64,000 nt of DNA from an uncultured virus (IMG/VR IMGVR_UViG_3300027816_000062). Taxonomy: Duplodnaviria > Heunggongvirae > Uroviricota > Caudoviricetes. The notes below the pieces were generated by a model. It saw nothing but the letters and a program-made list of their open reading frames with translations, was not told where the DNA came from and did not search any database. The stretch lies in the IMG/VR virus record IMGVR_UViG_3300027816_000062; one strand, given 5' to 3'. Shown in pieces: positions 1 through 63,816 of this stretch (within the stretch, counting starts at the first letter, position 1; every line of letters starts with the position of its first letter). Both the position numbers and the translations under genes were made by a program.

Positions 1-28
1 GAAATACAAAAGAAAAGGGATTTTTTAT

Positions 29-62
29 AATGATCGTGGCGCATAATCTCAGAAAGTTATAA
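29..62 (+). repeat. Dyad repeat A copy 1
   Basis: AATGATCGTGGCGCATAATCTCAGAAAGTTATAA; further copies at 621, 1416, 2418, 2783, 3548, 4083, 4686. Confidence 0.85.
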
Positions 63-67
63 AGAAA

Positions 68-84
68 GCCCCGTTTTCAGGGGC
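68..84 (-). terminator. Intrinsic terminator downstream of 104..565
   Basis: GCCCC-gttttca-GGGGC hairpin flanked by A/T runs. Confidence 0.65.
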
Positions 85-103
85 ATTTCTTTGAAGTCAG
101 TTA

Positions 104-565
104 TTAGAACCCAAAAGACGGGGTTTTCAGCAAGGTGGGCAGTTCTTGAATCGGCACCAACTTCACCTTCCCGTTGGTCTTTTGGTGGACCAAATCCGCC
201 CACTTTTCATCCAAGTGCGTGTTAGCGTTGTAAACGATGAGCCCGCCGTCGTAATTCCCGATAATGCTCATCAATCGGGCCACATTGTTCTTCACCATAG
301 ACCCGATGTAAAGTTGCTGGGTGGCGAAGATTTCAACGGCAATTTTCTTGCCGTTAGTCACCACTTCAAGGTCAATGGTGTGTTCAAATCCAGGCCGCTC
401 AACGACCGCTTGCGGAACAACCATACCCTTTCCAACGACGGCCTCGAAGGCCTGTTGGACAACAAGTTCGAGCTGAGAGTGCTCGTTGCTGGTGGAGCGG
501 AAAAGCTTTAGGGGCCAATTGTCGGGGATTTGAAGAAGGGCGACGATGGTTGCAATCTCAGTCAT
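104..565 (-). CDS. Hypothetical protein, PD-(D/E)XK/Mrr-like fold possible
   Basis: Own promoter (582-592) and GGAGAGG RBS; IDLEV...KIAVEIF and GGLIVY resemble a restriction-endonuclease-like core, with the catalytic Lys absent. Confidence 0.6.
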   Translation of the reverse strand: MTEIATIVALLQIPDNWPLKLFRSTSNEHSQLELVVQQAFEAVVGKGMVVPQAVVERPGFEHTIDLEVVTNGKKIAVEIFATQQLYIGSMVKNNVARLMSIIGNYDGGLIVYNANTHLDEKWADLVHQKTNGKVKLVPIQELPTLLKTPSFGF

Positions 566-620
566 GATTGTTTTCCTCTCCTTATATATCAGATTGGGCT
601 ACGAAAGAAAGAGGATTTTT

Positions 621-650
621 TATGACTTTCTGCGATTGTGTGACACAATT
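621..650 (-). repeat. Dyad repeat A copy 2 (inverted)
   Basis: Reverse complement AATTGTGTCACACAATCGCAGAAAGTCATA. Confidence 0.75.
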
Positions 651-667
651 CAATGCAAGCCAAATAT

Positions 668-882
668 AAACAAAATCCCTGGCCACGGAGCCTCATGCTC
701 ATGCGCGACCAGGGTGCCGTCAGTTTTTGGATAATCTCTATACTGTTTGCAACCAATATAGAACCACGTAATCGCGTCCTGAGACTGACCGTTGCATTTT
801 CACGCTCTGCAACTAGAGGGGAAGCGGATACTCTTTGGTGTGCAGTCCACTTCTCAGCACTAGCGAGGTTGAGGCCTCGTTC
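668..882 (-). ncRNA. Putative structured ncRNA 1 (~215 nt)
   Basis: Promoter 886-896 with no credible ORF; stems CGAGG/CCUCG, GAAGUGGA/UCCGCUUC, GUUGCA/UGCAAC, GUCAGU/ACUGAC, UCUAUAUUG/CAGUAUAGA; terminal CCCUGGUCGCG/CGUGGCCAGGG hairpin followed by a U-rich tail. Confidence 0.65.
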
Positions 883-970
883 TTCTTATATATCCGATTA
901 GGCCAATGTAAAAAGGGGATTGTTTATAAAAAAACCCCCGCATTTTCAAACACAATCGGATATATAAAAT

Positions 971-1369
971 ATGACCGAAGTCTTTGGACAGACCACAGTC
1001 GCCGAGGCACTGCACTCGTCAGTTCACGAAGTCGCAAATCTCATTCTTGACAAAGGTTACCAAATCTTTACAGCTGACTGCCGCCCCGACATTCACTTCG
1101 CATGGCCCAATCGTGACTTTTACTTCACTGACGGGAAGCGCGTTGGATATTGCCAGTATGACAATCTCAATGGACTTGTATTTTGTCAAGTGTTGAAGGG
1201 TCATGGGTTTGGGAATGTCTACGATTATAAAAGCCCCCTGAGCGATTTAGTAGAAAAGACCCTAAACGAAATGCATGAACGACAATATCAAGACTTTGCA
1301 GAGTTTTTGGAATACAGAAAGCAAATTGGTGTACTGTATGAAGTGAAGTCTTTTGAAGTGAAGTTGTAA
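971..1369 (+). CDS. Hypothetical protein (leaderless)
   Basis: ATG 3 nt after CGGATATATAA; terminator hairpin 1373-1395. Confidence 0.8.
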   Translation: MTEVFGQTTVAEALHSSVHEVANLILDKGYQIFTADCRPDIHFAWPNRDFYFTDGKRVGYCQYDNLNGLVFCQVLKGHGFGNVYDYKSPLSDLVEKTLNEMHERQYQDFAEFLEYRKQIGVLYEVKSFEVKL

Positions 1370-1372
1370 ATC

Positions 1373-1395
1373 TCAGGGGCAAAATAAGCCCTTGA
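1373..1395 (+). terminator. Terminator hairpin
   Basis: TCAGGGGC-aaaataa-GCCCTTGA followed by T-rich sequence. Confidence 0.6.
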
Positions 1396-1415
1396 TATTT
1401 ACTTTTATAACCAAA

Positions 1416-1452
1416 ATGATCGTGCCACACAATCGTAGAAAGTTATAAAAAA
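1416..1452 (+). repeat. Dyad repeat A copy 3 (between two convergent terminators)
   Basis: AATGATCGTGCCACACAATCGTAGAAAGTTATAAAAA; no adjacent promoter. Confidence 0.85.
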
Positions 1453-1472
1453 GACTAGGGCAAGCCCTAGTC
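1453..1472 (-). terminator. Terminator hairpin
   Basis: GACTAGGG-caag-CCCTAGTC preceded by an A-run (U-tract on the minus strand). Confidence 0.7.
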
Positions 1473-1655
1473 CAAATCCTCAAGAAGTTCAGCGTCGCCT
1501 TCATCCATCTCGTTGTCAGAATACCATCGAGAAAATGGGATACTGGCTTTGAAATCTTCCCATGCTTGCCCCAATTCATCTGCTGAATTTACAGAGAATG
1601 ATGCCGTATAAGCGGCACTACTGTCTTTATCACAAGCCCGAAAGATTCCAGTCAT
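1467..1655 (-). CDS. Small acidic hypothetical protein (leaderless)
   Basis: ATG 3 nt after promoter core 1659-1669; C-terminus DNEMDEGDAELLEDLD. Confidence 0.75.
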   Translation of the reverse strand: MTGIFRACDKDSSAAYTASFSVNSADELGQAWEDFKASIPFSRWYSDNEMDEGDAELLEDLD

Positions 1656-1695
1656 GCCTTATATATCCGATTGGGACAAAACAAACGGGGGATTT

Positions 1696-2091
1696 TTAGA
1701 TTTGACTCTCTCGAACAGGAATCCAGTTCTTTTGACGTTCAACTCTTTGGCCAAACTTACCAACCGTGGAAATCAACTCACGAAGTGAAGCGTATCCCTT
1801 CTCTCGCTCATTGCCCTCGACAATCCCGTAAAACAGGAAGTCATGAGCCTCGGACTGGCGGGCAGTCGAATCTTCGGGGTGAATCATCACACCATTTTCG
1901 TCCACGGGGCTGCCCTCGATTATAAACCATCGCCAAGTAGGAGCAACAAAGAACAGTTTCAAAACCACCATCGGATTCGGATTCGAGTCTTGAGAGTAGA
2001 GCGGAGGAAGAATGTCCAAAATCTCATCGGGGAGCAAGTGAGAAGCCTGCTTCATGAGTTCAGAGTAGGAAAGTTCAGCGGTGGTGGACAT
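1696..2091 (-). CDS. DUF2958-like protein
   Basis: LPPLYSQD...VVLKLF...WRWFIIEG...LFYGIVEG..EKGYASLREL pattern; own promoter and GAGG RBS. Confidence 0.75.
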   Translation of the reverse strand: MSTTAELSYSELMKQASHLLPDEILDILPPLYSQDSNPNPMVVLKLFFVAPTWRWFIIEGSPVDENGVMIHPEDSTARQSEAHDFLFYGIVEGNEREKGYASLRELISTVGKFGQRVERQKNWIPVRESQI

Positions 2092-2146
2092 TTTCTGTTA
2101 ACCTCTGTCTTATATATCCGATTAGAATACGAAAGAAAGGGGTTTT

Positions 2147-2371
2147 TTATAATGAGCTTGGCCTATACTCACGGACCACAGGTGCATCATAGACATCGTT
2201 GGAAATGTCACTCTGAAGGTCACCACAATCCATTATTTTGCTGCACTTATCAAAAAAAGATTTATCAATGCTTTCACCAAGAAGTTCAGCACACAAAGCC
2301 GCGACCTGAAAGTTGTATTCGCTCGGAACACCAGATTCAGCCATGAGCTTTAGGTTTCGCATTTTATCCAT
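2147..2371 (-). CDS. Hypothetical protein (leaderless)
   Basis: ATG 4 nt after variant promoter core 2376-2386. Confidence 0.7.
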   Translation of the reverse strand: MDKMRNLKLMAESGVPSEYNFQVAALCAELLGESIDKSFFDKCSKIMDCGDLQSDISNDVYDAPVVREYRPSSL

Positions 2372-2417
2372 ATTTTCATATATCCGATTAGAACACGAAA
2401 AACAAGGGTTTTTTTAT

Positions 2418-2453
2418 AATGATCGTGTCACACAATCGTAGAAAGCCATAAAG
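2418..2453 (+). repeat. Dyad repeat A copy 4
   Basis: AATGATCGTGTCACACAATCGTAGAAAGCCATAAAG. Confidence 0.85.
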
Positions 2454-2739
2454 AAAAAGACCCGTCCATCCATGACGGGCCTTTCTTCCTCTTCTTTTTG
2501 TACTTGTATTTTTTTATTCTGGATTTTTGATAGAGTGTGACTTGGGAAACCCAAACAAGATACAAATGAAAATGGTTAATTACTCCATCCTCATAATCTC
2601 TTGCATCTGATATACGCCCATCGTATACTTCGACACCGCTAAGTTTCAAGACAACGCGCCCGCCTTGCAAGGGACTCGAACCCAAGCTTCGATGTTAAAC
2701 GTTTCTCAGATTGTGAAACTTAATTCACTATCACACTCT
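2452..2739 (-). ncRNA. Putative structured ncRNA 2 (~210-nt folded core, A-rich tail and terminator) with T-loop motif
   Basis: Predicted 5' end (2739) coincides with a 9-bp closing helix (2731-2739 pairs with 2532-2540); 9-bp helix 2714-2722/2640-2648; GGGUUCGAGUCCC T-arm at 2671-2683; further hairpins; terminator 2459-2481. Confidence 0.75.
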
Positions 2740-2782
2740 TCTTTATATATCCGATTAGAGCCATGCAAAAAGGGGATTTTTT

Positions 2783-2820
2783 AATGATCGTGGCGCACAA
2801 TCGTAGAAAGTCATAAAAAA
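2783..2820 (+). repeat. Dyad repeat A copy 5
   Basis: AATGATCGTGGCGCACAATCGTAGAAAGTCATAAAAAA. Confidence 0.85.
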
Positions 2821-2847
2821 GACGGATGCTCATATTGAGCATCCAAT

Positions 2848-3048
2848 TTAGAGTCTGCGGTATACCGTTACCCCATTGCGATTATGAGACTTCATATAGC
2901 CTAGATTTTCCAGTTTTTCAAGTCTCTCAGCCAAAATCACATCATCAAAAGACACTTTAAGGGACAATTGATAGAGCGTTTTTCGCTCGTTGGTGCCACC
3001 GAATTGTCTCAGAATGGCATGGTCGTATGCGGTCAGATTCTTATCCAT
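2848..3048 (-). CDS. Small winged-helix-like DNA-binding protein
   Basis: LT..D..IL...TLYQLS...LAERLEKLENLGYM...VYRR is typical of wHTH; translationally coupled to the upstream gene (TAATG). Confidence 0.65.
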   Translation of the reverse strand: MDKNLTAYDHAILRQFGGTNERKTLYQLSLKVSFDDVILAERLEKLENLGYMKSHNRNGVTVYRRL

Positions 3049-3266
3049 TAGGACACTCGCTCAAGCCGAATCACACCCGCATCATCGAGTTGCATAAGTG
3101 CTGGGCAAACGACGTAAGACCTATTGCAGTAATAGCCGTCAGCAGGAAATGCAACACAATCCCCATGAACATCATGGTTTTGTTCGCGCCAAGGCATCAT
3201 ATCCATGCCTTTCAGAAGTTCCTTGATGGCTTGCTTGAGAATGTCATTTTCTTCTTGAACCGTCAT
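3048..3266 (-). CDS. Hypothetical protein (leaderless)
   Basis: ATG 3 nt after promoter core 3270-3280. Confidence 0.75.
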   Translation of the reverse strand: MTVQEENDILKQAIKELLKGMDMMPWREQNHDVHGDCVAFPADGYYCNRSYVVCPALMQLDDAGVIRLERVS

Positions 3267-3324
3267 ATCTTATATATCCGATTAGACCACGAAAGAAAGG
3301 GGATTTTTAATCAACGGCGTAAAC

Positions 3325-3504
3325 AGAAAAGTTTAGCCCCAACAAATAATTGTTGGGGCTAACGACATGCCTATCTTGTCTTGGTTTTTGAGTTTTCAGT
3401 TACACTTTCTTTCTCATGCTGGTAAGGTTCGTCCAGCTACTATAAGGGCTACAGGGCCTGGTCATCGAGCACAATCTGAGTCTCGCGCTTTCCTCAGTCT
3501 TGTT
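3325..3504 (-). ncRNA. Putative ncRNA 3 (~180 nt)
   Basis: Promoter 3508-3518 (its region is identical over ~50 bp to that of ncRNA 2); only a 21-codon ORF without RBS; hairpins AGCGCGA/UUGUGCU and GCUGG/CCAGC; A-rich tail; strong terminator 3333-3362. Confidence 0.55.
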
Positions 3505-3547
3505 ACTTTATATATCCGATTAGAGCCATGCAAAAAGGGGATTTTTT

Positions 3548-3583
3548 AATGATCGTGCCACATGATCACGGAAAGTCATAAAG
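3548..3583 (+). repeat. Dyad repeat A copy 6
   Basis: AATGATCGTGCCACATGATCACGGAAAGTCATAAAG. Confidence 0.75.
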
Positions 3584-3618
3584 AAAGACAGATAACTTGT
3601 ATCTGCCTTTCCAAGTTT

Positions 3619-4023
3619 TCAATCCCCGATGGAGTAGTATTGTTTGAACACCACTACTTGAATGTTCGCCATTATGCAGTGAACAGAAATGTCCCCGCCC
3701 TGCCATGCATTGCCAATGTCATAAAGAACATTTGCAAGTTCGGAGTTTTCAAGCCCAGCCGTGGTGAAGAGATTGTATCTGACCGCACTGTAAGACGCAT
3801 TGCCCCAGGCCTCTTCAACATTTTGGATTCGATTGAACGCATTGTCGCTTGAAATGTCAATCCAAAGCCGCTCTCCATTTGACAAATCGGCGATATAGTA
3901 TTCTCCCCGATTGGTTACAACCTTGCGAATGGCATGATTCAGAAAGTGTTCGCCCGACCGCGTGGGAAGGATTTTTTCAGGCTGAGTAGGATACTCGGCT
4001 GTGATTGTGGGGACTTTGATCAT
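3619..4023 (-). CDS. Hypothetical protein
   Basis: Own promoter 4042-4052 and AGGTGG RBS; hairpin at ~3586-3608 downstream. Confidence 0.75.
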   Translation of the reverse strand: MIKVPTITAEYPTQPEKILPTRSGEHFLNHAIRKVVTNRGEYYIADLSNGERLWIDISSDNAFNRIQNVEEAWGNASYSAVRYNLFTTAGLENSELANVLYDIGNAWQGGDISVHCIMANIQVVVFKQYYSIGD

Positions 4024-4082
4024 CTTGACTTTCCACCTAGTTTATATATCCGATTAGAATACAAAAGACAAGGGATTTTTTT

Positions 4083-4118
4083 AATGATCGTGCCACATAA
4101 AAACAGAAAGCCATAAAA
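4083..4118 (+). repeat. Dyad repeat A copy 7 (between divergent promoters)
   Basis: AATGATCGTGCCACATAAAAACAGAAAGCCATAAAA. Confidence 0.7.
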
Positions 4119-4165
4119 AATCCCCTTTCTGCATGGCTCCAATCGAATATATAAAGAGAGGAACA

Positions 4166-4648
4166 ATGACTACTGAACAAGTCGCCGCCGCCCTCGCCAC
4201 CAAGCGCAAGGGAACAATATTCACCCTTCGCGTTGCACGTCCCGCCAAACTTCGCGCTGGTTCGCGAGATATGGATATTGTCAAGGCTTCCGTTATGCAA
4301 GGCATGGCGAACACTGACTATGCCAGCCGTGGCCCCGTTCGCGAAGCCGTGGCCCTGGGAGAACGTGATGCCCCTGCCCTGCCCAAGCATATTGAAAAGA
4401 CATTCACGGAAAACGACGTGAAGTTTTGGAAAGGCCACAATGGCGAAATCTACTTGCCCGTTTGCCTTACGGGGAATCATGCCGAAGTCACCTGGCTTCA
4501 GGATGGCGAGGAAGTCAGCCTGGACGAAATCAAGGACCATCTGCTTGCTTCCGAATATGCAAGCCGCACCGATAAGGATGACCTTGCAGAACGCGGCCAA
4601 GTGCCCTTTATCGGCGTAAATGTCAAGCACATCGAATCGGTAAACTAA
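4166..4648 (+). CDS. Hypothetical protein
   Basis: Promoter 4144-4154, GAGG RBS, ATG at 4166; terminator AGGGG-cgcaag-CCCCT plus T-run at ~4666-4688. Confidence 0.8.
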   Translation: MTTEQVAAALATKRKGTIFTLRVARPAKLRAGSRDMDIVKASVMQGMANTDYASRGPVREAVALGERDAPALPKHIEKTFTENDVKFWKGHNGEIYLPVCLTGNHAEVTWLQDGEEVSLDEIKDHLLASEYASRTDKDDLAERGQVPFIGVNVKHIESVN

Positions 4649-4685
4649 GCCAGACCATAAAGACTAGGGGCGCAAGCCCCTTTCT

Positions 4686-4719
4686 TTATAACTTTCTATG
4701 ATTGTGTGCCACGATCATT
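4686..4719 (-). repeat. Dyad repeat A copy 8 (inverted)
   Basis: Reverse complement AATGATCGTGGCACACAATCATAGAAAGTTATAA. Confidence 0.85.
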
Positions 4720-4763
4720 ATAAAAATCCCCTTTCTTTTGTGTTCTAATCGGATATATAAAAC

Positions 4764-4871
4764 ATGAACAAAGGATTTACGCTCCCAGAACTTGTTTTCC
4801 TCATGCTTGGAGTTATTATCTTTGTCATCTTGACCCTTGCTGCTATTTACATCGGGATGCGAGTCTTTTGA
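4764..4871 (+). CDS. 35-aa prepilin-type (class III signal) mini-protein, not in ORF track
   Basis: MNKGFTLPELVFLMLGVIIFVILTLAAIYIGMRVF*; G|FTLxE motif plus hydrophobic helix; ATG 3 nt after promoter core; TGATG coupling to the next gene. Confidence 0.75.
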   Translation: MNKGFTLPELVFLMLGVIIFVILTLAAIYIGMRVF

Positions 4872-5197
4872 TGCCAGAAGTTATCAATGCAGAAAAATGG
4901 CTAAAGGCACCCAATAGACAGGGTAAATGGCTTTGCCTGACCGTGGGCTTCCAAAATTACGACCCACAAACAATCCGAGATTACGATGTCAATAATGAAC
5001 GTGATGGCGCAAGGGTGGTCAAAGCCGATTTCATCTACGTCCATTGGGCATATGACCAAAAGACCAAATCAAAGATTTTGCTCCAGGTGTATGCACCGTT
5101 CACTTCCCGATGCCCGTCTATGCCACTGCCCGAAGATACCGATGCGGTAAAGTATTTCTATATCGGGCCTTTTGAACTTCCTTTTGACCAGCGATAA
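4871..5197 (+). CDS. Hypothetical protein
   Basis: ATG overlaps the stop codon of the mini-pilin. Confidence 0.7.
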   Translation: MPEVINAEKWLKAPNRQGKWLCLTVGFQNYDPQTIRDYDVNNERDGARVVKADFIYVHWAYDQKTKSKILLQVYAPFTSRCPSMPLPEDTDAVKYFYIGPFELPFDQR

Positions 5198-5237
5198 AAA
5201 TCCCCTGTATTTTCAAACACAATCGGATATATAAGAT

Positions 5238-5408
5238 ATGCAGAACGTAGAAGGAACAAACACCTGGGTGGGCGAGACTGTGCCAATGCAGTTCGGACGC
5301 ATGGCTGATGAATGTGGCGAACCGATTGACCATACCGCTGTCACTATCGTTGTCCCCGATTGCCTTGAACACAAAAATGTTCGCATCACCATTGAAGTCA
5401 TTGAATGA
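5238..5408 (+). CDS. 56-aa hypothetical protein (leaderless), not in ORF track
   Basis: MQNVEGTNTWVGETVPMQFGRMADECGEPIDHTAVTIVVPDCLEHKNVRITIEVIE*; ATG 3 nt after promoter core 5224-5234. Confidence 0.7.
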   Translation: MQNVEGTNTWVGETVPMQFGRMADECGEPIDHTAVTIVVPDCLEHKNVRITIEVIE

Positions 5409-5519
5409 TGGGCAGGCAGTGACCACAATAAAAATCCCCCGTTTCTTATAAGGCAAAACCATATATAAGAGGAGGGGGCAAAAACCCCTACCCACATCCG
5501 ACCACCAAGACCCTGTACC

Positions 5520-5965
5520 ACGATCAACAACGATGATGATTATGATCGGGCACCCATGTGTCATGATCGCTGCTATAGTAGAGGGGGGGGTACTAAAACT
5601 TTTAGGTACCATAAGGAAGCGGTACGCCACCCCGTCATTTTTTCGATCATGCCAAAAAAATGGCCCCGATAGTTTCCCCGATCATAACTAATATTGTAGT
5701 TTACCCGATAGTTTTCTCGATCATAACCGATCAGAATCCACCCCGATAGTTTTCCCGATCATCTCGCCAGAGTAAGAAAAATAATTTGCGCTTACTTTGC
5801 CCCCTATGATTATTTTTGTGATAGCAGGGGGGGTGGTAAAATTTTCGAGTAAGGTATCCCCCACCATTTCGGGAATCTTTCTATATATGTATATAATTCT
5901 TTTCCCCGATCATAATTCTGATAGTGTATGGGGGGTATTGAAATTTTTCTTAAGGTATCCCTGGT
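5520..5965. repeat. Non-coding iterated-repeat block (origin/terminus/injection-signal candidate)
   Basis: 3x CCCGATAGTTTYYYCGATCAT (5664, 5704, 5741) plus a partial copy at ~5900; 3x G6-8-run...AAA-TTTT...AGGTA(T)CC (5583, 5827, 5930); 9 GATC between 5522 and 5911. Confidence 0.75.
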
Positions 5966-7239: not shown

Positions 7240-7686
7240 TTATTTATTTCTCTTGAAGATTTTCTTCCACCACGGTTGTGGATCATCAATTTTTGGTTTT
7301 GTGTTTTGTATAGGATCGGGGAATTTTGGATGAAAGATTTGTCTTTCATTTTCGATCATTGTTGCGTTATTAATTTGGTTAATCGCCCAGTTTGCTTTTT
7401 GTATGAGAAAGTCTTCAACTTTTGTTTTTTCTCTTTTTCTCTTACCCATTTCATCGATCATTTTAAAGTATGCTTCTTCGGCTTCTTCTGGCGTTGCGTT
7501 TGGAGAAATTCCTAATACATAGAATGGATTTTCTATAACTTGTGCCAATCTTTTCATTACATCCGTGGATGCTGTTTTAATAGCAAGTTGTTTTGTAATT
7601 TCGTCGGCCAATTTATAAAGCCCCATTGAATCCGCGATTTGTGCGAGTTCACAGTATTCATTTATAGAATTCAATGGGTTCATCAT
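7240..7686 (-). CDS. Protein with shared helical N-terminal motif and degenerate J-domain-like segment
   Basis: LAQIADSMGLYKLADEI...TDVMKRLAQ then NPFYVLGISPNATPEEAEEAY; no HPD. Confidence 0.7.
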   Translation of the reverse strand: MMNPLNSINEYCELAQIADSMGLYKLADEITKQLAIKTASTDVMKRLAQVIENPFYVLGISPNATPEEAEEAYFKMIDEMGKRKREKTKVEDFLIQKANWAINQINNATMIENERQIFHPKFPDPIQNTKPKIDDPQPWWKKIFKRNK

Positions 7687-8207
7687 TACTGTCGATTTTG
7701 GAGCGCCTTTTGGCTAGCAATTTGTGCATCAAATGCGCTAAGTGTTTTGATACCAAATTCGAGTGATTGTTTGCTTGATTTCAGATGTTGTTCAAGCGCG
7801 GCTCTTGTTTCTGATACGTTCTTGCCTTTTCTTGTGATCGCGTCGAATGCCCAGCCAAGATATCTTTTAATAAGTTCATTTTCTGGAGTAGTGGCTTGTG
7901 CTGGTTGCTGTGCATTGGGATTTTGCATAAAGTTCTGCAAAGACTGAGGGGCTTGTACATTTGCTGGCAATGTGTATACGGGACTGGCTAGAGCAGGAGT
8001 TTGAGGAATATTCACCGATCTTAAATCAACTGGTGCCAATGGATTGTAGGAATTTTGCTGTGGCATTTGTTGTGTAAACGGCATGGGGCTAAATTGCGCC
8101 ACTCTTTTCATAACATCCGTGACTACATCTGCTTCTTTGGTCATATTTTGATTATCGAGATCAGATGCGATCCCTGCCAGAGTTTCGAGAATATCTTTGT
8201 TTTCCAT
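7686..8207 (-). CDS. Q/P-rich hypothetical protein with shared helical N-terminal motif
   Basis: LAGIASDLDNQNMTKEADVVTDVMKRVAQ. Confidence 0.75.
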   Translation of the reverse strand: MENKDILETLAGIASDLDNQNMTKEADVVTDVMKRVAQFSPMPFTQQMPQQNSYNPLAPVDLRSVNIPQTPALASPVYTLPANVQAPQSLQNFMQNPNAQQPAQATTPENELIKRYLGWAFDAITRKGKNVSETRAALEQHLKSSKQSLEFGIKTLSAFDAQIASQKALQNRQ

Positions 8208-8243
8208 TTTTATCACCGTGGAGAAGTTATTATATATTTTCTT

Positions 8244-9878: not shown

Positions 9879-10006
9879 CTTATCGCTTCGAATTAAAGAT
9901 TTCTATTGTTTGATAGATTTTGCTTTCCCACATGGCCGCGATTAGGCTTGGGTTTATGATCGCGGCAGTGATCGCTCCGATCACTAGAAGAACATTGTGA
10001 TTTATT

Positions 10007-10693
10007 TTATTCTGTGTCATCTTCATAATCTTCCTCATAGTATGAGTTAATGTATTGCATCCACGGATCATTTTCGGGTGGATTCATTTCTTTCATAAGA
10101 AATGGTGCAACTTCTTGTGTAAGAAATTCAATAAAGTCTTCGACTTTGCTATCAATTTCCACCCATTCAATATTCCCCGTAAGTGCGGCGGTTCCGTTTC
10201 CAGAAAGTTCGAACTTATATGGTTTATACTGCATGATACCAAGTCTTGTGATCGGGAACAGATGCAAATCTCTGGGATCATTATTCATAAGCGCATATGC
10301 ATAAGCCTGCAGTTGTCTTGTATAGAACTGCATTTTCCCGCCTATATTATTGCTTGCTTTATAATCGATGACTCCAAATGTCCCGTCTTCAAATTGCAGA
10401 GCTGCATCAATTTTGCCTCTAATAATAAATTCGAATTGATCTTCGATCACGAGTGGTTTTGATTGCACCCATGCATCTGAGTGCACAATTTTCGCATTAG
10501 GCAGGAGTGGATCAAGTTCTTTTAGGTTTTTATTTTCGAGGCATCCTTTCATCACGCCATCGATATCGCCAACGACCTTTGGCATATTCATTCGCGGTCT
10601 TCTAATGCCATGTTTATATTTTTCATAAAATGCCCACGGTTCTTTTTCCCACAGGAATGTAAAATCTGACGGACTAAATACAATTTGTCTCAT
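10007..10693 (-). CDS. PD-(D/E)XK nuclease (RecB/Cas4-like)
   Basis: SPS, RGKIDA, VIDYK, QLQAYAYAL motifs. Confidence 0.85.
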   Translation of the reverse strand: MRQIVFSPSDFTFLWEKEPWAFYEKYKHGIRRPRMNMPKVVGDIDGVMKGCLENKNLKELDPLLPNAKIVHSDAWVQSKPLVIEDQFEFIIRGKIDAALQFEDGTFGVIDYKASNNIGGKMQFYTRQLQAYAYALMNNDPRDLHLFPITRLGIMQYKPYKFELSGNGTAALTGNIEWVEIDSKVEDFIEFLTQEVAPFLMKEMNPPENDPWMQYINSYYEEDYEDDTE

Positions 10694-14670: not shown

Positions 14671-14724
14671 GATAATGGCTCATAAGTTATTTAAAACCTA
14701 TGAGCCATTATACAATAAAACTTA

Positions 14725-15582
14725 TTAAAGCGGTGTTGTGAATCTGGTATATGTTTCAAAGTCAATTTTTGCTTTTGTTATTTGATTAGCGTTCATTTGT
14801 CTTTCAACATTTTTTCTTATTTGTGTTTGCCCTAGTCCCAGGAATGTTGTTCCTATTTGCAACGATGTTGCGGCAGTTGTTGCAATTAACTGTCCTGGTT
14901 GTTGCAATCTAATATCGAGGTCGCTAAATTGTGCTGGTGTTGCCAGTGCTGTTACGCTTCCGCTGACGTGATATCCCTGTATGCCAAAATAAGGTGCTTG
15001 GCTACCAGTGTTAATTAAATAGTTTTCGCTAATAGTAAAGTTAATGTTTATGCTTCCTGTAAGAATTGCATAAGTTTGTGTTTCTTGTGAATCTTGTATT
15101 GTCAAGAATGTGTCATAAAATCTTGCTACTCGCGATATAAAATCTGGCGGCAAGACATCAACTGCATAGTGTGCATTAAACGCGCCTGGAATGCTTGACC
15201 AAAATTCTAGATCACATGTTACGCCTTCTTGTGCAATATTGATGGTCGCTTGCTTAAGTAGGTAGTTTTCGTTTCCCTGTGTTGTTGGGTCTCTTAAAAG
15301 ATTAAAAGAGTATTTAATTAAATCAAAGGCGTCTGTTGTGGTGTCAGATGTATTTGGATTAAGTTCAATAATTAGCGCTGGGGTTTTAATTCGGGTTATC
15401 CACTTAACTCCACCAACGTTCATAACGTGCGTTCCAATATCTCCTTGCATAAGGAGTTTGGGTTCTACTTCTTGTGCTTGGGTTTCGCTCCAGCTTTCAA
15501 ACAGCCTAATGAATCCCGCTCCATCGCGGAAATAATACCATGTTGAAATATATTCTGGCGGCAGGATGGGCATATTTTTCAC
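14725..15582 (-). CDS. Hypothetical protein (possibly structural, T/I-rich)
   Basis: 285-aa ORF; composition only. Confidence 0.65.
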   Translation of the reverse strand: MKNMPILPPEYISTWYYFRDGAGFIRLFESWSETQAQEVEPKLLMQGDIGTHVMNVGGVKWITRIKTPALIIELNPNTSDTTTDAFDLIKYSFNLLRDPTTQGNENYLLKQATINIAQEGVTCDLEFWSSIPGAFNAHYAVDVLPPDFISRVARFYDTFLTIQDSQETQTYAILTGSININFTISENYLINTGSQAPYFGIQGYHVSGSVTALATPAQFSDLDIRLQQPGQLIATTAATSLQIGTTFLGLGQTQIRKNVERQMNANQITKAKIDFETYTRFTTPL

Positions 15583-15661
15583 CGATTGTTTTGAAAATTA
15601 AGCTAGTAGCGCCGTCAATGCGAAGCCAACAATCAGTATATTTTTCCACAGCTTTGTGTTT

Positions 15662-50048: not shown

Positions 50049-51782
50049 TCAAATTGTTTTTACCGCAGCAATTGAAGATGCGACTCTAATTGATTGATCA
50101 ATAAAGTCGGCTGATTTAAAGTCACCATTTTCCTCAAAAAACACTGCAAGGCGATTCATATCATCGAGAACTTTTGCAATGCGTATGCAAATATTTTCCG
50201 AGGAGCTAACAGTTTGCATACCTTCGTCTTTTTGTTTTGTGAAGTATGGATAAGACGCATTTTCTCGAACAACAAGGCTTTTGTCTGATTTTCCAGATTT
50301 CCAATTTTGAAGCTCAATGTCCATGATTTTTTTTCTTTCTTCTTCTGGGGCATTGTTGTGCAAAAATCCAAATGTGTTATCATCGCGCCTTAAAGACATT
50401 AATGTTCCATTATTGTATCCTAAATTATTATAGGCGTTGTCACGTATTTTTTGTGCTTCCTCATCGCTGATTTTGTCCCAGGGCTTGTCTCCAAATTGTT
50501 CTTTTTTTATTTGGTTGTACTGAAAGTGCCGCAACAATTCATCCACACCAAAAAGCACACTTCTCCATTCTTTCGTATCGAGTCGAGATGCCCTGGCAAT
50601 AATTTGATCACGTGTTGTTGCTTTGATTCCAGCTTCATCAAGTTTGTTTTTAAGCGTTATTAAGAAATCTTGCTGAAGCATGTTAATATTAACAAGTTTC
50701 TTTGTGCCTGCTTCTTTATTGCTTCGGCCCGCAACATCTGCGTGCAGTTTAGCCTCAAGCATTGACTCGTACATTATCTCCATTATTTTTCTTGCAGTTT
50801 GGGGGTCTGTAATTTCATATGCGCGTCTGAAAATAATATGCAACGGTAAGCGACCGTTTTGCTCGACCTGATATTGCTTCAGCTTATAAATGGGCAAGAA
50901 AGCGTTTTCGGCTACCCATTGCCCTGATCCTTGAAAATATCTTGCTCGATTATTAGCCTTTGTAACAACTTCATCTATGTCAGCGGTGTCTCGGCTGATT
51001 AATTGGCCCTTTCTTCTGCGCATAAGGCTTGCTGGTACTGGACCCAAAGATTTTTGTCCAGATTGCTGGGCCAAATCTGGATTATTGGGTTTTTGTTTGC
51101 TTTCAATTTGATTCCTTAAATTAATATCTTCTTCCCATTGTTTGAGATTTTCTAATTCTTCAAATTGAGATCGATTCATATTGGGATTAGATTCAATTTC
51201 TTTAATCTTGAACTGAATCGTTCTTAAAAGAGCCACATAATCCACATATTGATCTTGCGCCATATAGTCAATATGTGGGGGCATTTTGGTATTTTCATCT
51301 GAAACAAACTTTGGGTGCGGGTTGACTAGTTCGTCATAAGATAAATGATTGTCGAGCGCATCTTTCGGAGCTAAGTTTTTTTGTTTGTATTGAAATACGG
51401 CTGATTTAGCTGATAGTTTAGCTCTGTTTAAAAGCCAGTTGTAAGGAGATGACACTCCTGATTCGTTGCGTATATCATAAGTTTCCAGGCTAGACTCAAT
51501 GCCTCTTTTCCACATATAATACATGACCTTTGATGACAAATCTTCGGCAGAATGTTTCTCTATTTCAGGATGCACCGTATTAATATATTTTAACGCCGTC
51601 TCTTCAAGAAGTTGCAAAAAACCTGGCAAATTCTTGATTTTTTGCAAAATTTCTCCTGACCGAGGGCTTTCTGTTTTGTAGCGAAAAACCAGATCATTTA
51701 ATGCTGACTTCAGGGATGATTCCTGGGCATTTTTGATAAATTTTAAAAAATTCACCGCATATTTTGGAAGCGCCTGGCGCAT
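50049..51782 (-). CDS. Large hypothetical protein with shared helical motif at C-terminus
   Basis: RLAVFFEENGDFKSADFIDQSIRVAS; N-terminal AEDL...ETYD...PYNWLLNRAK weakly sigma region 2-like. Confidence 0.75.
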   Translation of the reverse strand: MRQALPKYAVNFLKFIKNAQESSLKSALNDLVFRYKTESPRSGEILQKIKNLPGFLQLLEETALKYINTVHPEIEKHSAEDLSSKVMYYMWKRGIESSLETYDIRNESGVSSPYNWLLNRAKLSAKSAVFQYKQKNLAPKDALDNHLSYDELVNPHPKFVSDENTKMPPHIDYMAQDQYVDYVALLRTIQFKIKEIESNPNMNRSQFEELENLKQWEEDINLRNQIESKQKPNNPDLAQQSGQKSLGPVPASLMRRRKGQLISRDTADIDEVVTKANNRARYFQGSGQWVAENAFLPIYKLKQYQVEQNGRLPLHIIFRRAYEITDPQTARKIMEIMYESMLEAKLHADVAGRSNKEAGTKKLVNINMLQQDFLITLKNKLDEAGIKATTRDQIIARASRLDTKEWRSVLFGVDELLRHFQYNQIKKEQFGDKPWDKISDEEAQKIRDNAYNNLGYNNGTLMSLRRDDNTFGFLHNNAPEEERKKIMDIELQNWKSGKSDKSLVVRENASYPYFTKQKDEGMQTVSSSENICIRIAKVLDDMNRLAVFFEENGDFKSADFIDQSIRVASSIAAVKTI

Positions 51783-51908
51783 TGTATAATGCATATGTGT
51801 ATATTTGCAATTTAAATTAATTAGCACCTTTTTGCAAATTTTGCTTTTGATCACAAGTGCATTTTTGGCATTTTTTCACTATAAAATCAATGGGAGAAAA
51901 CAAAACAT

Positions 51909-55104: not shown

Positions 55105-55797
55105 TTGGGACAAGACCTATATATATTACAACTAGTTAGAAGGGCCAAAACTGGAGATGAGCGAGCTTTTTCTAGGCTCCTGGATGAAATAGAGCCAGAC
55201 CTTAAAAAGGTCGCTCATCAATATTTTATTCAAGGACAAGACAAAGAAGATGTTCTTCAAGAACTAAGAATTGCAGTCTATAAGGCCGTGGGTTCCTATG
55301 ATGAATCCCAAAACACTACGTTTAAAAGCTTTTGCATCAATCTTGTGTGTAAAAGGCATATATCCACGGCAATACATTCTGCACTAAGACACAAAAACAA
55401 AACTCTCAACAATGCAGTATCTCTTGATGCTCCAGTGATAATGGGTGATGATGGAAATATGCAATCTCTATCCGAGTTCATTCCTGACAGAGACAATCCT
55501 TTGGAAGAAGACCTTGGTGATCGAAATATATTAGACGATTTGATATCCAGAGAGGAGCTTGAGGACAACCGCAAGCTTCTTGCGCCAAGGCTTACATCAT
55601 TAGAGGGCAGGATTTTTGAGCAATATGGCCACAGCTCTTCGTATAAGGATATTGCAGAGGCATTGGGAATAGAACCCAAATGTGTTGACAATGCTCTTAT
55701 GAGGATACGCAAAAAAGCCAGTGAAGTTTTTGACCAAACAGACCCAGGCAGCAATGTCAAAGATAGCGGCCCCAAAAAAAGAAGAAAACGAATTTAA
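55105..55797 (+). CDS. RNA polymerase sigma factor, SigH-like
   Basis: YFIQG.DKED.LQE, TAI..A.R.K...LN..VSLD, SY.DIA..L....K.VDNAL.RIRKK. Confidence 0.88.
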   Translation: MGQDLYILQLVRRAKTGDERAFSRLLDEIEPDLKKVAHQYFIQGQDKEDVLQELRIAVYKAVGSYDESQNTTFKSFCINLVCKRHISTAIHSALRHKNKTLNNAVSLDAPVIMGDDGNMQSLSEFIPDRDNPLEEDLGDRNILDDLISREELEDNRKLLAPRLTSLEGRIFEQYGHSSSYKDIAEALGIEPKCVDNALMRIRKKASEVFDQTDPGSNVKDSGPKKRRKRI

Positions 55798-58164: not shown

Positions 58165-58224
58165 GTTCAAATCTTAGATTTGAAGAATTATATTGAGGAA
58201 TTAATAAGTTTCGGAGGTAGTTTT

Positions 58225-58815
58225 GTGGAAGCCCATTATCAATATATTAATGATTTAGTAACAAAATCACAAAATGGGGACACAAATGCTTTGTCAGATA
58301 TTGCAGAATTTTATAGCCCGCTCATATCTGCATCTATCCAAAGATGTATTCTTAGAGAACCCAGGCTTTTGAGATTCAAAGAAGATGTTGAAGCAGAAGT
58401 TTTTTTAATCCTTAAAAAGCTTGTAGAGAATTACGATCCCAATTTGTCTTATTTTTCTTATTATATATCCACTCGTTTAGATTATGCAATTATCAATCAG
58501 TGTAGGCAAACAATCCTGGGCCTTAAATCTAATTCTCGATTCTGTGAGGAAGTTTCTTTTTCTGATATATCAGAAGATTTAGATATTGTCAACCATGATG
58601 ATCCTTTTGGTAAAATTCATGTTGCGCAGGCAATTCAAGGGGCGATTGATAAATTGAATCCTCGACAAAAAGAAGCAATAGAAGCTTACTTTTTTGACAA
58701 CTTAACTCAGCAAGAAGCCGCGAAAAAACTTGGCATTACACAAGCTTCGTTTTGTAAAAGGCTTCAGCGAGGCCTGAACAGCATGAGAGAATTATTATCC
58801 GAAGATTTTATTTAA
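58225..58815 (+). CDS. Sigma-70 family sigma factor
   Basis: YDP..SYFSYY region 2; L.PRQKE.I...FF..LTQQEAA..LGITQ region 4; GGAGG RBS before GTG. Confidence 0.88.
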   Translation: MEAHYQYINDLVTKSQNGDTNALSDIAEFYSPLISASIQRCILREPRLLRFKEDVEAEVFLILKKLVENYDPNLSYFSYYISTRLDYAIINQCRQTILGLKSNSRFCEEVSFSDISEDLDIVNHDDPFGKIHVAQAIQGAIDKLNPRQKEAIEAYFFDNLTQQEAAKKLGITQASFCKRLQRGLNSMRELLSEDFI

Positions 58816-63500: not shown

Positions 63501-63816
63501 AGAATACAAAGGAAAAATTTATTCTGAATTAATGCAATTAATCAGAGAACAAAGAATAGATATTTATGGAATTTCTGGTGGCACCTATCAAGATGCCAAG
63601 GGCGTGGTTCAAGACCTTAACGAAATTGCTGAGGCTAAAATTCAATTTACATTTTTGCAAAAAGTTTGGAAAGGCAAAAGATTTGAGATCAAAGCACTGT
63701 CTGGATACAAAGACGACATATGTGATGCTGTTGCGGCAGCGGCATATGAATGTTTGACGGCAAGGGTGCTAAGCAGTTTTCCAAAATCGAGAGTGGCCAG
63801 AACTGGCGCTAGATAA
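60592..63816 (+). CDS. terL: Terminase large subunit (intein-containing)
   Basis: PWQ, Walker A GRRSGK|S, IIMDE, SNPKG, FGAEF, HLDPA, FDQW, DDICDAV. Confidence 0.92.
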   Translation: MKKGRPSKPEYLKQDKKTSLMQQLAALEDSFKNQGYEGEYDDEIMPSVRAEVMPPPTPEKTNYNPDQIVDIVTFMEHPYFCNLKPYPWQRLILKCFYMGQEGNTNLEIQDVDQDVRESGTCDGCVWKYVRNDEEKVYKGRKDGKQLRNIFSVVNSPCLTCERFDDTLREDRYVAARHEATNPDDSRKIDNLIKRPISDNYETEYDLLHASEFDPLLRKQVLDKCTNRYKFQELILVLGRRSGKALALDTPVLTTKGWKTMGTLQVGDYVFGDDGFPTRIIAATEPMEGRICYRMRFSNGDTIVADEQHQWRVVSKRERKNQPRARIPRELRQEIKTTKEIAQTLLHGRSRTIVDCKTGKSRIMGAERNWSVELASPLQMPEADLPIAPYLMGAWLGDGCSTHGHITSNTIEVIDRIRETTSYNPWKQACNPFGYCIGKDANEVSFKERLRDLGLLGKGRKHIPTAYLLASEHQRLELLRGLVDTDGHVCARSGRIEITTVYDDLARGIHSLVCSLGQKATILTGDATLNGKFVSKKYRICFTPRNGLLPATLSYKRDRVSHAKKSDVGRIFIEKVEKLAESVPVRCIQVDNASNMFLAGKSLVPTHNSFLVSVMALYELYRLLAMGHPQARYGLMEFDEIVLLNVARNEEQAKKAIFSKIKQTVLASPFFQPYVGKDTELEMRFFTDHDKKENERRAENGINLFSGSLVLRCGSSNASGLVGLTCWSIIMDEVAAMAGDNPDSGLDYALYDDLKPSGATFGKDFKMMMLSNPKGPIGLLYDLHENRQDDPTTLVMRLATWLTNPSIDQEWLEEQKRKDPTEFQMQFGAEFGAASSDPMFTVDQVNGMWAMTSTTPRAEHGQPLIEYYAHLDPARTSDYYALVVSHAEQIYPIQIGPDNKPLKRVVIDHIHFWNPRTKNQPVSEKEVEDYLIELHQKFKFKQVSFDQWHSQSSIIRLKSMGINAVERQFNQEYKGKIYSELMQLIREQRIDIYGISGGTYQDAKGVVQDLNEIAEAKIQFTFLQKVWKGKRFEIKALSGYKDDICDAVAAAAYECLTARVLSSFPKSRVARTGAR
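61321..62412 (+). mobile_element. Class 3 intein with LAGLIDADG homing endonuclease (364 aa)
   Basis: Starts ALALDTPV, ends VPTHN|S; ADEQHQW, VRCIQV, PTHN (W-C-T triplet); LMGAWLGDG and LLRGLVDTDG. Confidence 0.9.

Follow-up and report, generated by a model that had tools for sequence, protein, structure and literature searches.

The first 5.5 kb of the window (the whole stretch of 64,000 nucleotides that was analysed, IMG/VR record IMGVR_UViG_3300027816_000062) repeat one motif in front of a series of small units, which raises the question what kind of array this is and which factor reads it. A preliminary description regarded it as a swappable immediate-early array for counter-defence and takeover. 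According to our analysis, the array forms the right end of a block of ~62 kb in the 379-kb genome of an uncultured freshwater jumbo phage. To the full reading, in which this block is a probable terminal repeat, its units are leaderless with private promoters and show a turnover like that of PeSL elements, and a phage sigma factor likely reads them, we assign a probability of about 0.6. As judged from the sequences of one gene family, the host is likely a member of the Fimbriimonadales (Armatimonadota).

With a two-box weight matrix, 14 promoter copies were detected in the window between 582 and 5468, and one more is truncated by the window start. The counts given before (14 complete and one partial copy) were thereby borne out, but the literal consensus with AAAWCCCC fits only eight of these copies; corrected, the motif reads AAAAATCCCYT-N15-ATCGGATATATAAR. 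Genome-wide the matrix had 62 matches, 60 of them within 1.9-59.8 kb of the phage assembly G000, and none on three shuffled genomes. A search with an 11-mer, allowing at most one mismatch, gave 14 matches in the window (13 inside the array) vs 0.71 expected. The array was described as spanning 5.5 kb; promoter copies continue leftwards in G000 for another ~54 kb, and contig L109, left of the G000 start, carries three further strong ones. Both strands are used at 45.9-59 kb of G000 (12 plus, 18 minus), whereas all 30 copies in the remainder are on the plus strand. The shape is like that of the sigma70 family, with an A-tract (-42 to -38), CCCC (-36 to -33) and GATATAT (-12 to -6); the CCC of the -35 box is nearly invariant. 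Near-identical promoter pairs, as reported earlier, were found again: 2743-2792 equals 3508-3557 exactly (52 bp are identical between the copies at 2742 and 3507 if the flank is included), and 931-967 differs from 5198-5234 at 3 of 37 positions.

The position of the start codon relative to the motif is fixed. It lies at offset +3, the predicted +1 of a leaderless transcript, in 35 of the 60 copies, and any other offset occurs at most four times. A purine is found at the predicted start site in 58 of 60 copies, including 23 of the 25 without a start codon there. Both counts support the earlier view of the repeat as a promoter. Units led by a Shine-Dalgarno (SD) sequence are the minority in the block. 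The features of the array are as follows.

1..25, minus: partial promoter copy (-35/UP half), -10 box just left of the window
30..62, plus: 33-bp joint core, then terminator hairpin 65-85
104..565, minus: 153-aa ORF, SD-led, without family
581..620, minus: promoter copy (weight matrix)
620..652, minus: degenerate 33-bp joint core (core repeat)
677..882, minus: ORF-less unit, strong terminator 677-714; folding z -1.7, within the range of coding controls
885..924, minus: promoter copy (weight matrix)
929..968, plus: promoter copy (weight matrix), back to back with 885-924
971..1369, plus: 132-aa leaderless ORF, without family
1416..1448, plus: 33-bp joint core between two convergent terminators
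1467..1655, minus: 62-aa acidic leaderless ORF
1658..1697, minus: promoter copy (weight matrix)
1696..2091, minus: 131-aa ORF, SD-led, without family
2109..2148, minus: promoter copy (weight matrix)
2147..2371, minus: 74-aa ORF, begins 1 nt past the predicted start site
2375..2414, minus: promoter copy (weight matrix)
2419..2451, plus: 33-bp joint core, terminator on one side, promoter on the other
2532..2739, minus: candidate 208-nt structured RNA, multi-branch fold, z -4.95
2742..2781, minus: promoter copy (weight matrix)
2784..2816, plus: 33-bp joint core
2848..3266, minus: two-gene unit, 72-aa leaderless ORF 3048-3266 and 66-aa ORF 2848-3048
3269..3308, minus: promoter copy (weight matrix)
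3334..3504, minus: ORF-less unit, z +0.1, its terminator the sole structure
3507..3546, minus: promoter copy (weight matrix)
3549..3581, plus: 33-bp joint core
3619..4023, minus: 134-aa ORF, SD-led, without family
4041..4080, minus: promoter copy (weight matrix)
4084..4116, plus: 33-bp joint core flanked by divergent promoters
4116..4155, plus: promoter copy (weight matrix)
4166..4648, plus: 160-aa ORF whose conserved family is unnamed (19 homologues, 39-58%)
4686..4718, minus: 33-bp joint core, terminator on one side, promoter on the other
4722..4761, plus: promoter copy (weight matrix)
4764..5197, plus: 35-aa leaderless prepilin-like peptide (weak match, ComGD, E 0.013) and 108-aa ORF
5196..5235, plus: promoter copy (weight matrix)
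5238..5408, plus: 56-aa leaderless ORF
5430..5469, plus: last promoter copy, weak (score 15.2)

Ten units contain ORFs of 35-160 aa and three are ORF-less, so that proteins and RNAs do not alternate as described before. That most units end in a hairpin terminator holds for about 9-10 of 14, where a hairpin plus T-run follows, but units 2110, 2376 and 4760 read into the next promoter; the first match of the terminator scan for units 582 and 2743 was an internal hairpin, and the sequence was inspected besides. The proposed counter-defence function is unsupported, as every cargo protein in the window stays below the curated family cut-offs; the 66-aa ORF 2848-3048 shows a weak winged-helix match (HTH_27, E 9e-4) below cut-off. 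In the block, ORFs have a median of 115 aa vs 243 aa outside, and 15 tRNAs are present. Among 98 block proteins scanned, ArdC, PARP, Macro, GmrSD-N, RlaP and GP88 were identified, the majority being without family.

The 33-bp core is a second repeat, with 27 copies in G000 and eight in the window; 20 of the 27 lie at 45.9-59 kb, where promoters occur on both strands. A joint consists of hairpin, conserved core and promoter, and non-adjacent joints have 43-52 identical bases in common. Neither this core nor the fixed start-codon position had been noticed in the preliminary description.

Comparison with relatives supports the suggestion of swappable units of the PeSL type. G154, a 31%-complete fragment, is collinear with the phage over the genome core and has about 26 homologous joints, and just three cargo families are common to both; the array design is the same and the cargo mostly different. 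G155 and G156 differ in one unit, which has been exchanged and turned round, with a promoter at one limit and a joint at the other. This exchange is of the expected kind, with cargo changing at the repeats; a second swap in this pair breaks at a start codon. These breakpoints concern units of the relatives, as no close relative covers the units of the window. The family of the 160-aa ORF sits at the same array end in G154-G156. In contigs of 2017 and 2019 the array was unchanged, with no rearranged joint apart from repeat cross-matches, and in the 95% variant L129 three units keep their order, the single break being an IS605-type insertion. An integron cassette array was rejected, as the cores lie in both orientations and the units have their own promoters; no tyrosine recombinase was found among the proteins scanned from G000, from which ~42 kb of the genome are absent.

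PeSL elements of T4-type phages (PMC2839356, PMC4122927) are likewise dozens of composite terminator-promoter repeats ahead of small ORFans in a variable region, with an AT-rich upstream tract and cargo turnover at or near the repeats. They differ in ending in SD plus ATG, whereas 35 of 60 copies are leaderless here, and in promoters that match sigma70; the block promoter is of a non-sigmaA type and that of G154-G156 is sigmaA-type. Here, moreover, a separate core outlasts the promoter sequence across relatives, the units occupy both strands, and the replication genes set the phage apart from the T4 type (its polymerase is DnaE-type). Excised mini-circles belong to PeSL; the present array was read from contig sequences, in which rare variants are lost.

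By analogy with PeSL, we infer that in the course of evolution units have been replaced and inverted by recombination between joints. A separate promoter copy would serve each small gene or group of tRNAs. In most units the transcript would start with the A or G of the start codon itself, otherwise with a short SD leader, and terminators joined to the core would insulate the units. The most likely reader would be a phage-encoded sigma acting with the core RNA polymerase of the host, rather than plain host sigmaA.

Judged by its sequence, the promoter departs from the sigmaA type, to which host leaderless starts and the arrays of relatives conform. It lacks T-12 and T-7 of the sigmaA -10 box, whereas host-lineage DNA has a TAnnnT peak at -12 (37 and 47 vs ~10-15). 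The arrays of relatives contain 19, 7 and 4 extended sigmaA leaderless sites, the 59.8-kb block 0; ATATA at -11 precedes 43 of 655 starts in the phage vs 1/182, 0/206 and 0/81 in the comparison sets. Since the promoter is unlike one read by the main host sigma, the phage may supply its own factor. The missing sigmaA -10 also renders the label 'immediate-early' doubtful; it would be possible only with a reader that enters with the virion or with a host factor not yet recognised. The candidate readers in the window are:

50049..51854, minus: 601-aa protein, N-terminal part with a cryptic sigma region-2 fold, candidate promoter reader
55105..55797, plus: SigH-like phage sigma factor, rival reader
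58180..58815, plus: ECF-like phage sigma factor, rival reader

Together with a FliA-like gene, the latter two make three ordinary phage sigma genes, with region 2 intact in all and region 4 in at least two. One of them, made after infection, may read the block as delayed-early or middle genes, and we hold this tentatively as a possible solution. A two-box promoter requires sigma-4, and middle genes of SPO1 switch to phage sigmas (PMC13401047). However, G154 has orthologues of two of the three (43%, 51%) and sigmaA-type array promoters, terminal-repeat genes of phage K are the earliest (PMC11598898), and in the genome-wide search almost no promoter copy precedes replication genes.

It seems unlikely that the reader is a host holoenzyme, either sigmaA with a short discriminator or an activator at the CCCC/A-tract, or a sigmaI-like alternative sigma. 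If shifted by two bases, the motif can be aligned loosely with sigmaA promoters, so activator-aided sigmaA is possible from the sequence. Host-family sigmaA promoters can read CCC-TTG...ATCGGA-TACAAT (L273, L274), a likeness that the search forces, and outside the block the phage has variants in which TATAAT stands four bases ahead of the ATG. In the sigmaA register, however, the -7 T is a purine and the transcription start would fall within the start codon, and there is no peak at this register among the leaderless genes of the host. Across 151 host-family genomes no regulon of the promoter was found, with 0-3 loose matches each. Bacillales sigmaI recognises ACCCCC--AA N15 CGAA----T (PMC4711584), similar in the C-run at -35 and CGRA----T at -10; the phage promoter has a T-tract instead of AA after the C-run, a spacing shorter by 1-2 nt and an invariant ATATA core.

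Equally unlikely, in our opinion, is a cryptic sigma (the 601-aa protein, an 802-aa protein or both) that is delivered by the virion with the DNA and makes the block immediate-early. In the structural model, the N-terminal part of the 601-aa protein carries the sigma region-2 fold: it superimposes on SigC with Z 9.0 (rmsd 2.1 Å, 88 of 89 residues), a moderate value for a helical domain, and the top 29 rows of the comparison are all sigma chains. Foldseek E-values were not significant; the nearest named Atlas clusters are Sigma70_r2. Residues 211-601 are modelled with a mean pLDDT of 58, structural matches there span the final helices only and no sigma-4 is recognised, yet the -35 CCC hardly varies. 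The 802-aa gene (G000:122314-124722) lies in the head-gene block, and its profile aligns weakly with phage sigmas (E 0.002, probability 13%). Both proteins end in a helical motif common to several phage proteins (six others for the 601-aa protein), whose role as a packaging tag would be conjecture. Both genes are missing from the syntenic sites of G154 (81-bp and 44-bp gaps), which has a sigmaA-type array, and are present in the closer relative G001; this hints at a virion-delivered sigma. The correlation concerns one fragmentary relative, and G001 lacks the array region.

The minimal sigma gp55 of T4 is synthesised in the cell and acts late. Phage-specific promoters and a phage factor are known from gp55 and the virion RNA polymerases of phiKZ/AR9 (PMC7824862, PMC13282480), and the 601-aa fold is, like gp55, centred on sigma-2 (7d7d_F, Z 7.7). 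The virion polymerases are whole enzymes, whereas no RNA polymerase subunit was found among 199 phage proteins scanned. It is rather improbable that a jumbo phage without RNA polymerase injects a head-packed sigma-like protein, which would turn the host core polymerase from the first minute to private promoters and so drive a ~62-kb terminal repeat of exchangeable units for proteins and RNAs. If true, the sigmaA arrays of relatives would mean a lineage-specific promoter switch that freed early transcription from the host sigma.

The position of the array at a genome end is suggested by contig depth and by one further feature.

5575..5950, no strand: non-coding boundary with three G-run motifs and three 24-bp direct repeats

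The weak promoter at 5468 points into these repeats, and the arrays of G154-G156 end in similar G-run repeats; the boundary is the probable end of a terminal repeat. On the left, the block ends beyond G000. Five block contigs have mean depths of 22.6 and 33.2 in two runs, vs 12.3 and 16.8 for the contig leaving the block. The ratios of 1.84 and 1.98 imply a step at ~4.1-6.0 kb of the window; they are per-contig means, not copy numbers, and both runs may be source samples. In two raw-read runs the phage was barely present, and no RNA run contained the stretch. The block is probably a long direct terminal repeat, and the doubled depth is in favour of the terminal module of SPO1 type that had been proposed.

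Two co-occurring phages or strains with an identical block could mimic the doubling, since sister strains exist (L129, 95%; L157, 94%). These are left-edge variant contigs, and bases 100-1255 of G000 differ from L110 at 84 sites. We consider this explanation distinctly unlikely: two runs, from different years and different studies, both give a ratio near 2, alternative letters in the array contigs are confined to repeat cross-matches, and the step lies near a boundary motif conserved in relatives.

In the Xanthomonas jumbo phage XacN1, a ~66-kb direct terminal repeat with tRNAs and small ORFs was found by 2x coverage in a collapsed assembly (PMC5852040). The present block is similarly rich in tRNAs and small ORFs at ~2x depth; host and lineage differ, and the repeat is predicted here from contig depth only. 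The word 'promoter' is absent from the main text of that paper. The takeover module of SPO1 and the tre genes of phage K (PMC13401047, PMC11598898, PMC9241854) also combine small unknown genes, many promoters and a terminal repeat. Their repeats are far shorter (SPO1 13 kb, PMC5852040) and SPO1 relies on host sigmaA for its early promoters; takeover function and timing are putative here.

The preliminary description further reported three units without credible ORF that fold extensively, and saw structured RNAs as regular effectors alongside proteins in a swappable takeover array. The three ORF-less units were confirmed, each with a full promoter, a purine at +1 and a terminator, and more occur elsewhere in the block. 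However, only one folds beyond the controls (35 coding units, z -2.65 to +1.64): with terminators removed, z is -4.2 for unit 2743, -1.7 for unit 886 and +0.1 for unit 3508. Rfam 15 covariance models at gathering score gave no match for candidate RNAs and, in the block, only tRNAs and one group I intron. Neither the relatives G154-G156 and G001 nor other parts of G000 contain homologues, and hence there is no covariation; the units could also be emptied cassettes with a decayed gene. We therefore give RNA as a regular second cargo little credence. Neither would RNA in such arrays be novel, as the terminal repeat of phage K already has three putative small RNAs (PMC9241854). The unit 2532-2739 probably makes a structured RNA, its predicted 5' end being paired with its own 3' end in the model. 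A 17-mer resembling the T-arm of a tRNA lies inside it.

The window lies at positions 54306-118305 of a 378,848-base virus record (G000), with genes for terminase, for a DnaE-type polymerase and for sigma factors. Near-identical DNA was found chiefly in freshwater runs. The repeated feature is real and larger than first reported; the promoter switch and the candidate cryptic sigmas are the part worth testing. The 11-mer CGGATATATAA occurs 14 times in the window with at most one mismatch (0.71 expected), and a two-box weight matrix placed 14 promoter copies at window 582-5468 and one more truncated by the window start. Thus, the 14 complete copies and one partial copy of the preliminary description were borne out, and the identities quoted there for near-identical promoter pairs are correct; its literal consensus matches eight of the 14 copies and not the others. 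The genome-wide count was 62, of which 60 lie at G000 1.9-59.8 kb, and none was found in three shuffled genomes. A longer contig of the same phage (L109) has three further strong copies left of the G000 start, and a 420,993-base contig bears the same protein cluster. Hence, G000 is considered incomplete and the block to span about 62 kb; the repeat described earlier as a 5.5-kb array is genuine, but its extent was underestimated.

In 35 of the 60 copies an ATG or GTG begins three bases after TATATAA, with at most four copies at any other offset; a purine occupies this position in 23 of the 25 others. With this base taken as +1, the upstream half of the logo comprises an A-tract (-42 to -38), T-37, CCC at -36 to -34 (95-100%) and then C/T. 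The downstream half follows after a 15-base spacer and reads G-13 G-12 A-11 T-10 A-9 T-8 A-7 T-6, positions -11 to -7 being conserved at 98-100%. Judged from this pattern, the repeat is of sigma70-family promoter shape, and we infer transcription into leaderless messages; four window units have an SD leader instead. No RNA run was among those listed for this DNA. The exact motif gave no matches in viral contigs and the relaxed motif 36, all single. In metagenome contigs no promoter clusters were found beyond the studied phage and its variants.

Contig mean depths point to a long terminal repeat, to which we give a probability of about 0.7. At G000 47-67 kb, five contigs within the block averaged depths of 22.6 and 33.2 in two contig runs, compared with 12.3 and 16.8 for the contig leaving the block (ratios 1.84 and 1.98); these are contig means, not copy numbers, both runs are possibly source samples, and two of the five contigs were assigned to 16-37 kb by hand via repeat cross-matches. 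The implied depth step falls at window ~4.1-6.0 kb. Left-edge variants at 94-95% exist, a caveat on the twofold depth, and in the raw-read runs X21 and X22 the phage was nearly absent (depth in 4/30 and 2/30 bins). Immediately past the last promoter the DNA is non-coding and contains G-runs and repeats of 24 bases; the arrays of three relatives end in similar G-run repeats. The 65,875-bp repeat of phage XacN1 was identified through the same 2x signal and includes tRNAs (PMC5852040), as does the studied block. Early timing is described for the repeat genes of phage K (PMC11598898), and sigmaA as the reader of SPO1 early promoters (PMC13401047). A terminal repeat of ~62 kb, as inferred here, would rank among the longest reported.

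Two CUA-anticodon tRNAs of the amber suppressor type adjoin a tmRNA at G000:294691-294858 (L167:16691-16858 in the numbering of locus L167); XacN1 likewise has CUA-anticodon tRNAs. An alternative genetic code was rejected and code 11 retained, because coding density without TAG changes only from 0.908 to 0.918. The terminase large subunit (window 60592-63816) has a LAGLIDADG-type insertion, a probable intein.

A 33-base core was found in 27 copies in G000, eight of them within the window. Typically, a terminator hairpin flanks it on one side and a promoter on the other; between divergent genes promoters stand on both sides. Twenty cores lie within 45.9-59 kb, a region of mixed promoter strands (12 plus, 18 minus), and the 30 promoters of the initial 45.9 kb have one and the same direction. 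Non-adjacent joints have 43-52 identical bases in common, which is what recent exchange would produce. The joints are the composite described for PeSLs in PMC2839356 and PMC4122927, save that the promoter is of another type and the SD is absent; to this extent the PeSL likeness proposed earlier holds. The block resembles a PeSL-rich variable region set in a terminal repeat of the SPO1/K/XacN1 type, and the array as such is another PeSL-like, leaderless accessory block. No match to the core was found in viral contigs. A dif/Xer or sigma54 site was rejected by eye against the consensus sequences, since the XerD arm is lacking and the spacing is wrong.

The 160-aa protein of window 4166-4648 has 19 homologues (39-58%), and its alignment led to three viral records. 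One of these relatives, G154, is 112 kb long; it is collinear with G000 at 61-150 kb and carries at the equivalent place an array with ~26 homologous joint cores in mixed orientation; just three cargo families are common to both phages, in the same order. The other two, G155 and G156, are ~88-91% alike and keep gene order across 8 kb. Between them one unit is replaced and inverted: its promoter-leader of 71 bases points the other way at 86% identity, its cargo is 19% alike and the right breakpoint lies at a joint. A second swap has its breakpoint at a start codon. Within the studied phage the array is the same in contigs of 2017 and of 2019, where those joints that were listed are repeat cross-matches. 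Of the 22 listed runs, dated 2017-2025, 20 contain 98-99% of the array words; all are marked as possible sources. Three units are still in order in a 95% variant strain, in which an insertion judged by eye as IS605-type is the sole break. As relatives differ in cargo while same-phage contigs and the variant stay stable, comparison of these sequences moderately supports swapping as an evolutionary process, not shown as an active mechanism. The swappable units proposed before are thus upheld as cargo turnover with one break at a joint, but not as rapid shuffling or as breakage at joints throughout. The IS605-type element (L129:1-298, variant contig) lies directly upstream of an array promoter. 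G154 has three paralogues of the 160-aa protein, two of them divergently transcribed at the array edge (L309:4628-5887 and 10001-10477, a piece of G154).

The relatives offer the natural comparison, as they retain array position, marker gene, joint core and boundary motif, but have sigmaA promoters; in the studied phage all 60 promoters are rewritten to a new consensus, on whose novelty published supplementary promoter tables could bear. Extended -10 sigmaA leaderless sites number 19, 7 and 4 in the relatives' arrays and 0 in the 59.8-kb block. ATATA at -11 precedes 43 of 655 candidate starts here versus 1/182, 0/206 and 0/81 in the relatives. The sigmaI consensus used in comparison is that given in PMC4711584.

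Three ordinary phage sigmas are encoded, two of them with G154 orthologues, and one of them is tentatively put first as the promoter reader, short of even odds. Rather unlikely is a cryptic sigma delivered with the virion, for which there are two candidates. In the 601-aa protein (window 50049-51854) the model of the N-terminus, with pLDDT near 85 for residues 20-130, matched sigma region 2 with Z 9.0 and rmsd 2.1 Å over 88 residues, the top 29 rows all being sigma chains; Foldseek alone was not significant, and Atlas features agree with sigma region 2. Neither sigma-4 nor another known fold was recognised in the low-confidence model of residues 211-601. The 802-aa protein (G000:122314-124722) has weak sigma profile support (E 0.002), and a pattern scan found no relatives of it. 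Both genes are missing from the syntenic G154 sites and present in the closer relative G001. No clear late-promoter motif was found ahead of them. Both proteins have a terminal helical motif common to other phage proteins, possibly a head-packaging tag. This motif of ~25 residues was seen near protein ends at window 7686-8216 and G000 15307, 104354, 121545, 251088, 332733 and 348033, and relatives have runs of genes beginning with it. Passages of two reviews (PMC7824862, PMC13282480) name phage sigmas as well as virion polymerases but no packaged sigma, and a non-exhaustive literature search found no description of one. If the reader were packaged, it would be a third route to start phage transcription, besides host sigmaA and virion polymerases.

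Reading by a host holoenzyme is doubtful to the same degree as by a virion-delivered sigma. The host is probably one of the Armatimonadota, judging from one gene family, since the best matches of a prepilin-like gene lie in Fimbriimonadales (64% over 286 aa). To our knowledge, phages of Armatimonadota are scarcely described; a non-exhaustive search found no paper joining Armatimonadetes, huge phage and sigma factor. Host-lineage DNA (two genomes, 400 kb each) has leaderless starts with TAnnnT at -12 (37 and 47 vs roughly 10-15). ATATA shows no peak at -11 in this DNA. The two-mismatch promoter pattern occurs in 38 of 151 host-family genomes at 0-3 each; as these sparse matches are mainly coding DNA or ordinary sigmaA promoters, no host regulon was seen among them. 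A reader of some other kind is improbable. No RNA polymerase subunit was found among 199 proteins scanned, a set without ten boundary-spanning ORFs, ORFs >1,500 aa, part of the window genes and the missing ~42 kb. The comparison with the relatives narrows the search to a small group of candidate sigmas and a precise promoter, so a new sigma-promoter pair can be tested directly in vitro.

Ten of the 14 window units have ORFs of 35-160 aa. Twelve window cargo proteins gave no match at the curated Pfam/NCBIfam cut-off and none in PHROGs. In the rest of the block and the left flank 14 of 98 proteins have Pfam matches, including ArdC, PARP, Macro, GmrSD-N, RlaP and GP88; the block also contains 15 tRNAs and one group I intron. 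The three window units without ORF all seem stable with their terminators included. With terminators removed, against 35 coding units as controls (z -2.65 to +1.64), they gave:

677-882, unit 886: z -1.7
2532-2739, unit 2743: z -4.2
3334-3504, unit 3508: z +0.1

The extensive folding claimed for all three therefore applies to unit 2743, the others lying within the controls. This unit is, by modelled folding, the sole good structured-RNA candidate among them (z -4.95, one of 200 shuffles equally good), its predicted first base beginning a helix with the last. It has no Rfam match and no homologue in four relatives or the rest of G000. Its internal 85-aa frame gave only a self-match and two weak repeat-protein matches, none credible; a decayed gene is not supported. 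Its T-arm 17-mer is common to 39 viral loci, and a tRNA or known RNA was rejected (best extension among these loci E 0.0035 over 75 nt). Because one unit folds beyond the controls, without Rfam match, homologue or credible ORF relative, RNA cargo is possible, neither regular nor demonstrated; the RNA-effector reading of the array is weak, and RNA effectors as its cargo were not confirmed. Small RNAs were already reported for the phage K terminal repeat (PMC9241854).

Further loci were observed:

L002:421-624, plus strand: group I intron match, apparently inside a tRNA gene; the 172-aa ORF after it has no Pfam match
L002:4727-5340, plus strand: ~610-nt ORF-less promoter-driven stretch between tRNA genes, z -4.7 with terminators kept, no Rfam match; location like that of GOLLD/ROOL or phage K long RNAs
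L002:12163-13443 and 14683-15264: a WGR-PARP gene and a Macro-domain gene within the promoter block, an ADP-ribose writer and eraser
L003:8394-8475, plus strand: tRNA-like ORF-less unit beginning precisely at the predicted +1, called by neither ARAGORN nor Rfam
L003:10961-11110, plus strand, and L003:13040-13221, minus strand: promoter-driven leaders or units with a hairpin at +1 and no early ORF
Window 4764-4871, plus strand: 35-aa leaderless peptide resembling an isolated prepilin N-terminus (ComGD, E 0.013)

This peptide might block pilus assembly in the host or play a part in superinfection exclusion. Two full Armatimonadota-type prepilin-like phage genes lie at L167:14303-15178 and 15256-16017.
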